Of a DNA stretch of 64,000 nt, positions 59,705 through 62,385 are shown one piece after another. The stretch is from positions 4,077 through 68,076 of the IMG/VR virus record IMGVR_UViG_3300045988_110853; one strand, written 5' to 3'. The translations under genes were made by a program, and so were the position numbers. The notes below the pieces were generated by a model. That model did not search any database. It was not told the origin of the DNA and saw nothing but the letters and a program-made list of their open reading frames with translations. The stretch's first letter is position 1; each line of letters opens with the position of its first letter. The DNA comes from a virus.

Positions 59705-59848
59705 TTGACAAAATTGGCGGGGTGTGGTATAATGGAAAATTCGGACCGCCACATGCGCCAGCGGTCCGCCAATTTTATCACAAAAATCCGCGTTTGTCAA
59801 TAGGCAAAATAGACAAAAAAAACTACCCAAAATTGGGTAGTTTTTTAT
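59705..59848 (+). ncRNA. candidate sRNA copy 1: sigma70 promoter, about 105-nt transcript, intrinsic terminator
   Basis: TTGACA 59705-59710, N17, TATAAT 59728-59733; 5-prime hairpin CGGACCGC...GCGGTCCG; terminator ACTACCCAA aatt TTGGGTAG + T7. Confidence 0.5.
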
Positions 59849-60094
59849 TTAGTCCAGTAGGTTGATTTCGCCGGGAATTCTGAAAGAATCAGCGTCCAGC
59901 GTGGAATTGTAGTCCTCGGTAAAGAGTTCAATCATTCCGCACTCCATGATGTAATTTTGAACTGCCCGCCGAACATTGTTCCAGAGGTCAGTCTTTCGGC
60001 TTTCCGCTCGGGCTTCCTTGACTTCCTTTATTTGGGCGATGAGTTCGTCCAGTTCTTCGGTTGTCATGTAAGTAAAATCCAAATCCATTTTCAA
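59849..60094 (-). CDS. hypothetical protein
   Basis: 81 aa ORF. Confidence 0.45.
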   Translation of the reverse strand: MKMDLDFTYMTTEELDELIAQIKEVKEARAESRKTDLWNNVRRAVQNYIMECGMIELFTEDYNSTLDADSFRIPGEINLLD

Positions 60095-60396
60095 AACTCC
60101 CCCTTAATGGCTTCTTTCCACGCGTCCCAGCCGAACTTTTCCTTGCTATCCAATTCCTTGCCAATGTCTTTTGCGGTCAGCAGGTCAAGCTCGTCCGCAA
60201 TTTCCTCTTCAAAGTTTACCCAGGTGTCATAGGTCTGAATAATGAAAACTTCATCGGCTTCAAAGACGCCACCGCACTCGGCGCAGATAACATAGTCATG
60301 GTCGATTAAAATACCCATGTGAGGGTCATTGTCATCAGGGACTACAAAAAGGACTTGTTTAGCGTTCATGTAAAACACCTCTTTCATTTGATACAT
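60091..60396 (-). CDS. hypothetical protein
   Basis: 101 aa ORF. Confidence 0.45.
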   Translation of the reverse strand: MYQMKEVFYMNAKQVLFVVPDDNDPHMGILIDHDYVICAECGGVFEADEVFIIQTYDTWVNFEEEIADELDLLTAKDIGKELDSKEKFGWDAWKEAIKGEF

Positions 60397-60427
60397 TGAT
60401 TATACCATAGGGAATAGGACTTGTCAA
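60392..60427 (-). promoter_or_regulatory. class-B promoter with palindrome GGGAATAGG / CCTATTCCC flanking -35
   Basis: -35 60422-60427, -10 60399-60404. Confidence 0.55.
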
Positions 60428-60447
60428 GCCCTATTCCCTATTTTTTT

Positions 60448-61224
60448 TTAGCCCATGTTTACAACGGGATTTTCCTTAATGTTTCGCATGAGCGCGCGCT
60501 GAAACTCGGTCGGCTTGGGGCGTTCCACCGTGGGAGTTTTGAAAAGGGACTTTTCCATGGTCTTGTGCTGTCGGACGCAGTATCGCAAAATCTCAACTTC
60601 AATGAGAACATCTTCAAGTCCCGTATGCGATTCATCAAATTCGTCCTCGCCACTGATAAATCGGTAAAGAATTTCTGCGGTAAAGCGGAGCTGTCCATTC
60701 TTGGTCTTGTAGCCGTTCTTTTCGCAATAGTCGCGGTAAGTAGGCATTTTTCCGATGACCTGTCGCGCCATTTTCAAAGTGTCCCAGATTTCGAGGTCGT
60801 AAGGGAAGAAATAGCGATACTTACTTTTCGTGTCCCACCTTTGCGCGTTATTACAGGCGTTAAGGTCGAACCGCATATTATGAGCGCACACGAAAGAACA
60901 GTTATAACGCTCGACACAATCGCAAAATGCCTTGCGAATTTCGTAAAGGTCAGCCATAATGCGCGAACCGTTCTTAATGTCCTCAATGTAGCGGGGAATC
61001 TTATCGGCATAGTATGCGGACTGCATGAGGTCGCGCTCGTAGCAGAAAATGTCGCGATTCACAAAAGAATGAGTTTCATAAACATTCCCCTTGGAATCAA
61101 TGACCGCCCAGCCGAAGTCATAGGGAAGCACATTTGACATATCCAGCTTATCGCCGTCTTGAATGGTATTTGCGGTTTCCGTGTCCAGCATAATACCGTA
61201 GTTTCTGCGCCTATCAATACCCAT
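60448..61224 (-). CDS. DEDDh 3-prime to 5-prime exonuclease (DnaQ-like)
   Basis: Exo I GIMLDTETAN, Exo II CAHNMRFDL, Exo III HTGLEDV. Confidence 0.7.
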   Translation of the reverse strand: MGIDRRRNYGIMLDTETANTIQDGDKLDMSNVLPYDFGWAVIDSKGNVYETHSFVNRDIFCYERDLMQSAYYADKIPRYIEDIKNGSRIMADLYEIRKAFCDCVERYNCSFVCAHNMRFDLNACNNAQRWDTKSKYRYFFPYDLEIWDTLKMARQVIGKMPTYRDYCEKNGYKTKNGQLRFTAEILYRFISGEDEFDESHTGLEDVLIEVEILRYCVRQHKTMEKSLFKTPTVERPKPTEFQRALMRNIKENPVVNMG

Positions 61225-61248
61225 TTTATCGTCTCCTATTGGAAAAGT

Positions 61249-61280
61249 AGATTGAGGTTTACCATCGTTCTCTCAACCTC
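61249..61280 (-). promoter_or_regulatory. conserved 30-nt leader element (copy 2)
   Basis: identical to 58146-58180; forms GAGGTT...AACCTC hairpin. Confidence 0.45.
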
Positions 61281-61281
61281 T

Positions 61282-61316
61282 GATAATAGTATAGCACTTT
61301 GCTATTGGTTTGTCAA
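61282..61316 (-). promoter_or_regulatory. class-B promoter (TTGACA-N17-TATACT)
   Basis: -35 61311-61316, -10 61288-61293. Confidence 0.5.
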
Positions 61317-61365
61317 TAGTTTTTTTTGTGGGGCAGGGGATTTTTTTATCCCCTGCCCTTTTCTC

Positions 61366-61740
61366 TTACGCACGGGAGAAGTAGGACTTGCGCTTGTCAA
61401 CCGTCTTGACAACCGTGCCTGCGTCAATCATCTGGCGCAGAAGAGCGGAAACACGCTGATTGGTATACTCCGCAAGCTCGGGAACGGTCTTGATGAGGTC
61501 AGTCACCGTATACAGCTTGTCAGGGTTGGCGGTCATCTCGTCCAGAATGACCTGCTTCACGGCGTCATTCTCCATCTGCTTGGCCGTGGGCTTCTTGTCG
61601 CCCGCGTTCTTCTTGGCGAGCAGTTCAATCTCATGCTCAATGAACGCCACCATATCAGGATTCGCCTGAACCTCGCTCATTTTGAGCAGAGCCTCGAAAC
61701 GGTCGCGCTTGGTGAGCTTCTTAACAGTAGAAGTAGCCAT
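61366..61740 (-). CDS. paralog-family protein
   Basis: MATSTVKKLTKRDRFEALLKM; RBS aaccagaaaggaattgatact. Confidence 0.55.
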   Translation of the reverse strand: MATSTVKKLTKRDRFEALLKMSEVQANPDMVAFIEHEIELLAKKNAGDKKPTAKQMENDAVKQVILDEMTANPDKLYTVTDLIKTVPELAEYTNQRVSALLRQMIDAGTVVKTVDKRKSYFSRA

Positions 61741-61784
61741 AGTATCAATTCCTTTCTGGTTTTTAAGACTGTCCTTGTCTTTGA

Positions 61785-61821
61785 TGTAGTTATTATAACA
61801 TAGGCGGGAGTAGGTTGTCAA
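61785..61821 (-). promoter_or_regulatory. class-B promoter
   Basis: -35 61816-61821, -10 61792-61797. Confidence 0.5.
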
Positions 61822-61989
61822 TAGTTTTTGCAAATTTTTTTTAGGGGCGGTCGCGAGGTTTATTACTATACATCTTGTTTATACCTACCTTTATCTATAA
61901 TCATAAACCAATTCATTTTACTAAACCAAATTAGTCTTTAAGGCGGTGGACGAGCATCAGTAGTCATCTTGTTTACCTCTCTCATTTGA

Positions 61990-62025
61990 TGTATTCATTA
62001 TACCATAGGTCGAGCGGTTTGTCAA
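61990..62025 (-). promoter_or_regulatory. class-B promoter with no obvious downstream CDS
   Basis: -35 62020-62025, -10 61997-62002. Confidence 0.4.
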
Positions 62026-62243
62026 GGGGTTTTTCAAACTTTTTTTGAAAGTTTGTTCGGCACGCCACGCTTGGAACATTCCTTGTGTCGGCTTCTGGTA
62101 TAATGGTCGGGGGACTGCCTTTTCGTAGGTCTTACTATTCCCTCCTGACATTATGTAGTATAGCAGATTGGTATTGATTTGTCTATTGGCAAAATAACCA
62201 AATAATGGGAAAAAATAAAATTGAAATTTGTGCGAAATTTCTC

Positions 62244-62385
62244 TTGACAAAAATGCTGGCAGGGTGTATAATGGTAAATTCCGGTCGCAACGTACGTGGG
62301 CGACCGGCCAATTTTATCACATTTCCCGGGCGGTGTCAATAGTCAAAATAAACAAAAAAATCTCCCCAAAATTGGGGAGATTTTC
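62244..62385 (+). ncRNA. candidate sRNA copy 2
   Basis: TTGACA 62244-62249, TATAAT 62267-62272; hairpin CCGGTCGC...GCGACCGG; terminator TCTCCCC aaaatt GGGGAGA + T4. Confidence 0.5.

Follow-up and report, generated by a model that had tools for sequence, protein, structure and literature searches.

Control by cis-antisense transcription and face-to-face promoters is of a kind already known. The pIN and pOUT promoters of IS10/Tn10, with their transcripts RNA-IN and RNA-OUT, were reportedly described by Simons and Kleckner in 1983. Interference of a strong promoter with a weak one has been measured at the face-to-face promoters Pm and Pr of the Ecl18kI (SsoII-type) restriction-modification system (PMC2760811), where pR/pL of coliphage 186 are cited as a precedent (references 18 and 19 of that paper). 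Here we analyze a stretch of 64,000 nucleotides of viral DNA (positions 4,077 to 68,076 of IMG/VR record IMGVR_UViG_3300045988_110853; hereafter the window), in which an earlier inspection without database searches (hereafter the sequence-only reading) had noticed two paralogous plus-strand units and taken them for small-RNA (sRNA) genes. We call the promoter of each unit Pas (plus strand, antisense-oriented) and the opposing minus-strand promoter, which points in the direction of the genes, P1. Judged by its anatomy, each unit is most likely one half, the antisense one, of a module of two facing promoters, situated in the early region of a phage that relies on promoters of the host's sigma-A/sigma-70 type.

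Anatomy and recurrence of the modules

Both units carry what the sequence-only reading had reported: a perfect TTGACA-N17-TATAAT promoter, a GC-rich hairpin at the 5' end and a strong terminator that doubles for the convergent minus-strand gene, whose stop codon it abuts (Table 1). They are paralogous, with 75% identity over 137 nt of alignment (repeat family D14). Pas-1 and Pas-2 are the sole plus-strand promoter matches of at least 11/12 positions in the 64 kb, compared with 27 such matches on the minus strand. In both terminators, which lie ~50 nt beyond the hairpin, an A-run precedes the stem-loop and a T-run follows it, as in bidirectional intrinsic terminators. The predicted Pas RNAs both fold with -35.4 kcal/mol, corresponding to z-scores against shuffles of -5.8 in unit 1 and -4.2 in unit 2.

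Table 1. Features of the two facing-promoter modules, the associated genes and the third, one-sided copy (window coordinates).
Feature	Position	Strand	Description
Pas-1 promoter	59705-59733	+	TTGACA-N17-TATAAT, 12/12; class-specific upstream element TTTGTGCAA..TTTCTC; spacer AAATTGG..
Predicted Pas-1 RNA	59739-59852	+	~110 nt; start placed from the -10 position; 5' to 3': GC hairpin, A/U-rich linker antisense to P1, terminator hairpin, U-run
GC-rich hairpin, unit 1	59742-59768		Between both start sites; 8-bp stem, 11-nt loop with invariant CG
P1-1 promoter	59772-59800	-	TTGACA-N17-TAAAAT, 11/12, TG-extended
Bidirectional intrinsic terminator, unit 1	59817-59846		Ends minus-strand gene 59849-60094 and Pas-1 RNA
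P2, unit 1	59646-59619	-	Tandem gene-direction promoter between Pas-1 and paralog 1
P3, unit 1	59464-59436	-	As P2
P4, unit 1	59210-59182	-	As P2
Paralog 1	58754-59131	-	125 amino acids (aa), predicted C-terminal winged-helix domain
Pas-2 promoter	62244-62272	+	12/12, 17-nt spacer
Predicted Pas-2 RNA	62278-62389	+	~110 nt
GC-rich hairpin, unit 2	62281-62307		Stem sequence unlike unit 1, pairing retained
P1-2 promoter	62311-62339	-	TTGACA-N17-TAAAAT, 11/12
Bidirectional terminator, unit 2	62356-62385		Ends minus-strand gene 62394-62648 and Pas-2 RNA
P2, unit 2	62185-62157	-	Tandem gene-direction promoter
P3, unit 2	62025-61997	-	Tandem gene-direction promoter, 12/12
P4, unit 2	61821-61792	-	Tandem gene-direction promoter, 12/12
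Paralog 2	61366-61740	-	124 aa, 73% identical to paralog 1 in aa sequence
Third, one-sided module copy	57594-57707	-
P1, third copy	57657-57629	-	Perfect
Hairpin, third copy	57599-57625
Bidirectional terminator, third copy	57677-57707
TATAAT, third copy	57583-57588	+	Kept; -35 degenerate (9/12)

The shared box CCAATTTTATCAC, to which the sequence-only reading had drawn attention, is indeed present in both units, but its interpretation as an RNA box fails. It is the reverse complement of GTGATAAAATTGG, the TG-extended -10 (TGnTAAAAT) of P1, so that each unit is to be seen as half of a promoter pair. In both units, 38 bp separate the -10 hexamers of Pas and P1 and ~27 bp the predicted start sites, with the hairpin occupying the gap between the facing promoters. 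The -10 of Pas and the stem are separated by 8-9 nt, which would give the Pas RNA 3-4 nt ahead of the stem; the -10 of P1 is 3-4 nt from the stem, and the P1 RNA would therefore begin within the 5' arm, with the stem-loop flush with its 5' end. With these predicted starts, the first ~27 nt of the Pas RNA and of the P1 RNA are exact complements. Past the hairpin, the body of the Pas RNA is antisense of P1, of the A/T-rich upstream element of P1 and of the terminator. The initial proposal of small-RNA units thus survives in part: they are very probably real, selected, non-coding plus-strand transcription units of ~110 nt. A free-standing, self-contained sRNA gene with its own box is not what they contain, as the RNA body is merely the antisense of P1 and the hairpin is common to the opposing transcript.

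Each unit lies ~600 bp upstream of a gene of the same paralog family, and the two genes are 71% identical at the nucleotide level (repeat family D7). The third member of the family (36627-37043; hhalign probability 97%) has no module. The ~600-bp intervals keep promoters at matching positions, which agrees with the earlier suggestion that gene, regulatory region and RNA block were duplicated together, and the duplicated block is kept in relatives, where synteny extends to both units in loci L001-L012.

The search of related genomes that the sequence-only reading had recommended found the module repeatedly. For this comparison, 65 loci were retrieved from IMG/VR contigs of 85-200 kb with the paralog protein and the module motif, and 10 further loci came from collections of metagenome-assembled genomes (MAGs). 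Related contigs of ~570 kb contain 89 facing promoter pairs (77 distinct sequences), and the distance from -10 to -10 is 36-38 bp in 79 of the 89. Counted as distinct modules, ~58 have both promoters face to face, 43 have P1 only and 18 have Pas only; at L058, for example, three units of Pas plus hairpin directly follow the upstream terminator without P1. The promoter-hairpin units split into two discrete classes by the distance of the -10 from the stem. Those with 7-10 nt are antisense to the locally dominant coding strand (68:1), and those with 1-5 nt are sense to the local genes (88:1). The predicted length of the Pas RNA has a median of 112 nt and does not exceed 130 nt in 53 of 80 cases. 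Pas and a member of the paralog family are often arranged divergently, 256-1083 bp apart. An exclusive linkage between Pas and the winged-helix paralog was rejected, since it is seen in 13 of the 36 cases in loci fetched without reference to the paralog; the tie of the unit to the gene, as initially described, is therefore partial.

Conservation, proposed function and rival explanations

The 5' hairpin has the property of a structured RNA element, namely base pairs held by compensatory substitutions. Across 33 diverse homologues, 95.1% of the cells of the stem are paired, and five of the eight pairs show changes on both sides. Cells with double changes number 51, versus 14 in shuffles, and the covariation score of 0.559 (0.177 in shuffles) was reached by none of 500 shuffles. 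When the register of the stem is slid, pairing amounts to only 26-44% and the score to 0.12 or less. The loop is variable save for an invariant CG (33/33; columns 19-20 of alignment A2, corresponding to positions 59756-59757 and 62295-62296), which is followed by T in 24 of the 33 and thus mostly reads CGT on the Pas strand. By eye, the loop CG is mostly seen in the same orientation in modules without the antisense promoter. Stems and loops are unlike between copies within one genome. According to the alignments, the hairpin turns over fast yet keeps its pairing, and modules appear to exchange hairpin types as a whole; unit 1 of L007, for example, carries the type of unit 2.

Nucleotide diversity (pi) was calculated over 13 close relatives. 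It is 0 for all four hexamers of Pas and P1 in unit 1 and for three of the four in unit 2, the Pas hexamers being invariant. The Pas spacer shows values of 0.04-0.05 and the 60 bp behind Pas 0.055-0.10, compared with 0.186 at third codon positions of the adjacent gene, which makes Pas more constrained than synonymous sites. Within the transcribed part, pi is 0.13 in the stem, 0.33-0.43 in the loop and 0.12-0.34 in the P1 spacer, whose 17 nt are the sole part of the RNA free of constraint from P1 or the stem. Pas also has a signature of its own, AAATTTGTGCAA.TTTTCTC-TTGACA-AAATTG..G...GTG-TATAAT-GGAAATTC, which is unlike P1 and unlike ordinary sense promoters. Nor is Pas an inverted P1, for the two promoter classes have different -10-to-stem distances, spacers and upstream consensus sequences. 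These results bear on the possibility that the units arose by chance or as a by-product without function, say through inversions at the palindromic hairpin. Both promoter classes share this inverted repeat, and hairpin cassettes do appear mobile between modules, as such an origin would have it. We nevertheless give this idea hardly any credence: ~0.01 promoters with a 12/12 match are expected by chance per strand per 64 kb, yet two are found at homologous sites, and their hexamers are invariant and their spacer more conserved than synonymous sites.

The presence of Pas is also reflected in the adjoining terminator and in P1. At least five A in the 8 nt before the trimmed stem, which form a U-run in the Pas direction, were found in 22 of 30 Pas-facing terminators versus 9 of 26 terminators without Pas (Fisher p 0.004, Mann-Whitney p 0.003; distinct cases), p-values that are indicative only because the sequences are related. 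Stems were trimmed for this comparison, as the untrimmed version is confounded by A-T extension of the stem. The -10 of P1 is mostly TAAAAT or otherwise sub-consensus in modules with Pas and almost always TATAAT in modules without it. At the sequence level, the pair has the makings of transcriptional interference, with convergent promoters close together and Pas at 12/12 versus P1 at 11/12 in both units. Taken together, the patterns show purifying selection on Pas, which is very probably a real, strong promoter of a short antisense transcription unit, and we think it likely that the ~110-nt plus-strand RNA is made.

Whether such an RNA would act away from its own locus was considered next to searches for known families and targets. 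At gathering thresholds, Rfam 15 matched only 17 tRNAs in the window; under permissive settings the best match was STnc230 (35.7 and 30.8 bits, compared with a gathering score of 50), and these sub-threshold matches cover the terminator end of the units (59775-59854 and 62314-62389). A trans-acting sRNA that pairs with phage or host mRNAs, or binds a protein via its 5' hairpin, with P1 being incidental, would fit the classic layout, in which a consensus promoter is followed by a 5' stem-loop, a single-stranded middle rich in A/U and a Rho-independent terminator. It would also fit the 18 distinct loci with Pas and hairpin but no P1, the strong purifying selection on Pas and the invariant CG of the loop (mostly CGU in the RNA), which could be a contact for protein or RNA. 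On balance we consider this explanation unlikely. No RNA sequence is conserved beyond the needs of P1 and the two stems, no conserved seed was found in the Pas RNA (the 17-nt stretch without promoter constraint being as variable as given above), stems and loops vary between copies of one genome, no Rfam family matches, and in the shortest versions, those of L058, the Pas RNA is just two hairpins linked by an A-run. Target prediction, which the sequence-only reading had also recommended, gave no signal beyond shuffled controls at local ribosome-binding sites, where the best duplexes have -19.7 and -23.2 kcal/mol versus shuffled means of -17.9 and -19.6 (standard deviation 2.9).

Coding functions were tried and rejected. 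No conserved open reading frame (ORF) was found in the Pas RNA, whose single AUG, in the variable loop of unit 1, is missing in unit 2. A type I toxin-antitoxin system was suggested by a hydrophobic ORF, MKKIFSRNLVILSIV..., on the P1 transcript of unit 1 (from 59683, minus strand); this ORF is not conserved, its start codon being absent from unit 2 and from most relatives, and no Shine-Dalgarno sequence precedes it. A leaderless mRNA beginning at the conserved ATGTCAAGAGGGG after P2/P3 was likewise dismissed. Its reading frames differ in length and sequence between copies, and ATGTCAAGAGGGG is more likely a DNA or RNA motif.

We favor the view that the Pas/P1 module is a device for control in cis, by promoter competition or collision together with 5' antisense pairing, and we assign it a probability of about one half. 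From the anatomy we infer that Pas would start transcription ~3-4 nt ahead of the GC hairpin, that its polymerase would then cross the opposing P1, and that the transcript would end at the bidirectional terminator of the upstream gene, the product being a stable non-coding RNA of ~110 nt with a stem-loop at its 5' end and the terminator at its 3' end. Polymerase needs downstream DNA to about +20, according to footprint data. With start sites ~27 bp apart these needs overlap, so that the two promoters could not be occupied at once by two polymerases and occupancy of Pas and P1 should be mutually exclusive. Pas, which always has the consensus, would out-compete, occlude or collide with P1, which is usually weakened to TAAAAT, and it would also oppose read-through from the upstream gene. 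P1 transcripts that escape would be met by the Pas RNA, which would pair with their 5' stem-loop. As the first ~27 nt are complementary and both RNAs fold as hairpins, loop-loop pairing and duplex formation are invited, and the duplex would strip the protective 5' stem-loop from the P1 transcript. The net effect would be to hold down gene-direction transcription into the cassette, whether from P1 or by terminator read-through, and to leave expression of the cassette (here the winged-helix gene) mainly to the tandem promoters P2-P4 that belong to it.

The same complementarity admits an explanation centered on message stability, in which the Pas RNA would form duplexes with the terminator hairpin at the end of the upstream mRNA, with the stem-loop that opens the P1 RNA or with both, making substrates for double-strand-specific RNases and stripping protective ends. 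5'-terminal stem-loops protect mRNA in E. coli and B. subtilis, and the predicted start of P1 inside the stem would provide one flush with the 5' end. The Pas RNA is perfectly complementary to the ~30-nt upstream terminator hairpin as well as to the beginning of the P1 RNA, and stems that diverge fast but stay paired, together with hairpin swaps as in L007, are expected of cis-specific antisense pairs. However, the genes upstream of the two units are unrelated, with no common target evident, and any bidirectional terminator gives such complementarity automatically. We judge this explanation improbable, and it overlaps with cis control by the promoter pair rather than excluding it.

The rigid spacing of 36-38 bp points to interplay between polymerases, and this would also suit a device that works at the level of DNA, with no role for the RNA. 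Pas might be the divergent partner of P2-P4, acting through negative supercoiling or polymerase recruitment, or the promoter pair might be a polymerase trap or insulator. Pas does stand back to back with P2 (~59 bp between the -35 elements in unit 1), and the 60 bp between them belong to the conserved parts of the region (see the pi values above) and contain a recurrent TCCCGnAAnTTTG motif. Yet the 5' hairpin is kept at a fixed distance from the -10 of Pas even where P1 is absent, the selected U-runs for Pas termination suggest that the shape and the end of the transcript matter, and the distance between Pas and P2 is not constant in relatives (60-176 bp in L036). A purely DNA-level role is, in our estimate, quite improbable.

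Control in cis by promoter competition and antisense pairing has several observations against it as well. All of its start sites and RNA ends are predictions from sequence. The 18 distinct cases of Pas and hairpin without any P1 mean that silencing P1 cannot be the whole function of Pas, and the retention of P1 in ~58 distinct modules is hard to square with a mere shut-off of P1. About one quarter of the Pas units have no clear terminator in the Pas direction, and the comparisons of terminators and of TAAAAT use related sequences that are phylogenetically non-independent. Neither the balance of G-U versus A-C pairs nor the folding energies of the two strands show a bias that would tell on which strand the hairpin acts, and cis control does not account for the invariant CG of its loop. 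In view of the Pas-only units, the retained P1 and the invariant loop CG, a further role of the RNA as such, or of the hairpin, is probable.

A wider and decidedly tentative proposal is that the Pas RNAs are a new, widespread family of ~110-nt phage sRNAs that begin with a GC stem-loop, its loop bearing the invariant CG, and come from a dedicated promoter class whose spacer and upstream signature are distinctive. Paired with P1, they would work as a switch complete in itself that relies on competing polymerases and on pairing between the RNAs, and that gates or times early cassettes across a large clade of uncultivated phages of 100-200 kb from gut Clostridia. If this were true, the specificity of each module would come from stems that evolve fast yet stay paired, much as in the RNAs that control plasmid copy number.

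Winged-helix genes, nearby motifs and the rest of the window

The 125-aa paralog has 897 relatives in metagenomes, none of them named, and no sequence match among solved structures. Its predicted structure (predicted local distance difference test, pLDDT, of 86) consists of a helical N-terminal half and a C-terminal winged helix, and its fold is closest to the DNA-binding domains of ArsR/SmtB, MarR and Fur. A Z-alpha-like protein was rejected, because the fold match to PKZ Z-alpha reflects no more than a winged helix in general and, by eye, the recognition helix has no counterpart of the key Tyr. Going by the structural model, it is plausible that the paralog is a regulator of the promoter cluster. 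As candidate sites for it we point to the spacer of Pas, which is conserved, and to the inverted repeats CTCTTGACA...TGTCAAGAG that surround P2/P3.

At about +1 relative to P2 and P3 lies a conserved AGATAATGTCAAGAGGGGAA (59600-59620, 59417-59436 and 62138-62157, minus strand), which comes after promoters in L036 as well (8139-8160, 8263-8285 and 8575-8595). The TGTCAAGAG within it is the inverted repeat of the CTCTTGACA around the promoter's own -35, the two halves bracketing the promoter core. AGATAATGTCAAGAGGGGAA may be the operator of a dimeric protein or a 5' RNA motif before a small GGGG..CCCC hairpin; the ATG inside it opens no conserved reading frame. Another motif, TTTTTCCCG(T/A)AA(T/A)TTTG, lies ~35-45 bp behind the -35 of Pas and upstream of P2 (59660-59680, 62205-62222 and 57525-57540). 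It is present in nearly all modules of relatives and is retained even in the one-sided copy at 57.6 kb.

Three further features were noted in the neighborhood. Downstream of P3 of unit 2, a 9-codon ORF, MTTDARPPP-stop (61938-61967, minus strand), comes after a good Shine-Dalgarno sequence, GAGAGAGG. In 10 of 12 relatives it is retained as M[TI][TS][DN][AV]RPPP-stop, with synonymous codon changes in RPPP; the stop codon is lost in L007 and L010, where the downstream sequence is missing, and in unit 1 ATA replaces the ATG. Since polyproline immediately ahead of a stop codon is a classic setting for ribosome stalling, the ORF could be a leader peptide upstream of paralog 2; alternatively it could be the remnant of a truncated gene. 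A hairpin, GAGGTT-GAGAGAACGATGGTA-AACCTC, is found in the 5' untranslated region (61254-61280 and 58150-58174, minus strand), between promoter and ribosome-binding site, of a 258-aa exonuclease-like gene (60448-61224) and a 138-aa gene (57714-58130), and also in L036, L038 and L058. In relatives, its loop ACGATGGTAA is kept while the stem is changed (GGTAGGGG...CCCCACC, GGTTGAGGG...CCCCAAC), and it matches no Rfam family. The minus-strand gene that follows the one-sided module (57138-57509) is NUMOD4/HNH-endonuclease-like (Pfam E-value 2e-9). Its listed ATG has no Shine-Dalgarno sequence, and a TTG seven codons in, after AAAGGA, is a more plausible start; relatives carry different sequence at this place, as expected of a mobile endonuclease gene.

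The window as a whole is phage-like, with nearly all genes on the minus strand and 17 tRNA genes at 11.5-21.6 kb (Rfam scan). It contains two promoter dialects. Up to ~56.7 kb (1-56700) the DNA is AT-rich, with a GC content of ~0.33, and the consensus promoters are likewise AT-rich, of the form TTGACAttttt(a/t)aaaaaatannaTATAAT with an AT-rich spacer (repeat family D1, 17 copies). In the last 7 kb (57000-64000), where the GC content is 0.44, promoter spacers contain GC, and almost each small minus-strand gene has a perfect or near-perfect TTGACA-N17-TATAAT upstream, often TG-extended, as well as a strong Shine-Dalgarno sequence. This style of promoter and Shine-Dalgarno sequence fits a Firmicutes host, and near-identical module sequences are present on 164-176 kb contigs binned with MAGs of gut and rumen Clostridia. 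Searching the INPHARED phage genomes with 57500-64000 (blastn) gave 0 matches, and PHROGs and Pfam yielded little for the neighboring and the large proteins; the phage is thus not assignable to a known group. In 4 of 17 related contigs the locus is at the contig end, and it may therefore be a terminal early or host-takeover region.

At the border of the two zones, 53000-56000 shows a sharp local reversal of GC skew (+0.32 to +0.56) with a very low GC content (0.24-0.31). The reversal coincides with five repeats of ~40 nt, TAGGTAATTTTTCATAGTT (53241-53394 and 54161-54236), and with the sole stretch that has plus-strand ORFs. This region could be a replication origin or another regulatory array. 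Elsewhere, at 31717-31957, a unit of 33-45 nt is repeated six times in tandem inside minus-strand ORFs (repeat family D9), which suggests a repetitive protein segment.

Comparison with known systems

Our survey of the literature on phages found no description of the face-to-face module architecture. The unusual aspects are the rigid geometry, the shared covarying hairpin, the dedicated class of antisense promoters and the high copy number in an uncultivated gut phage clade. Should transcription be confirmed, the module would be an unusually clean natural design that is reused in many copies per genome. It would offer a compact system in which promoter competition, polymerase collision and antisense pairing at 5' ends could be studied side by side, would show how a very dense host-type early promoter array is partitioned into independent units, and would define a class of promoters oriented 68:1 against the local genes. 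For annotation, the case counsels caution, as a perfect promoter with hairpin and terminator in a phage early region may be half of a two-promoter device and not an sRNA gene that stands alone.

Short phage RNAs such as lambda OOP and P22 sar also come from a promoter that opposes a gene-direction promoter and act locally. They differ from the module in overlapping the coding or ribosome-binding sequence of a specific gene, in being single-copy, and in having no known palindromic hairpin shared between their start sites. The par (Fst) locus of pAD1, with RNA I and RNA II, is a type I toxin-antitoxin locus in which a short antisense and a convergent transcript share a bidirectional intrinsic terminator, in a genetic context of Firmicutes type, as here. 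Our module, in contrast, has no conserved toxin ORF, and its transcripts would overlap at their 5' ends besides the terminator. Known 5' stabilizers, such as the ompA leader of E. coli and those of B. subtilis, including early RNA of phage SP82, resemble the hairpin, since the P1 and the Pas RNA would each have a GC-rich stem-loop at the very 5' end or no more than 3-4 nt from it. Here, however, one palindrome, with an invariant CG in its loop, would serve two opposed transcripts, which it may stabilize.

With the 186 and Ecl18kI promoters the module shares converging promoters, of which the stronger or faster prevails in those systems by 'sitting duck' interference and occlusion, the pair being used as a switch. 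The start sites of pR and pL in phage 186 are 62 bp apart, compared with ~27 bp predicted here. In both systems the two transcripts are mRNAs, whereas the dominant transcript of our module would be a non-coding RNA of ~110 nt; a known DNA-binding protein flips the balance there, whereas the adjacent winged-helix protein is only a candidate regulator here; and our module carries a covarying hairpin between the start sites.

By analogy, the geometry of the module is closest to that of IS10 pIN/pOUT. In IS10, the promoters face each other at very short range, with a 5' overlap of 36 nt (~27 nt predicted here), the stronger promoter is the antisense one, and its product is a short, stable stem-loop RNA. 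The overlap in IS10 covers the ribosome-binding site and start codon of the target, whereas here it is placed 500-600 nt ahead of the coding region and covers the palindromic hairpin only: the nearest genes start at 59131 and 61740, ~570-640 nt from the overlap, and no conserved ORF starts within it. Here, three more promoters bypass the overlap, and the module, unlike IS10, is present in multiple copies in a phage genome and ends at the terminator of the neighboring gene.

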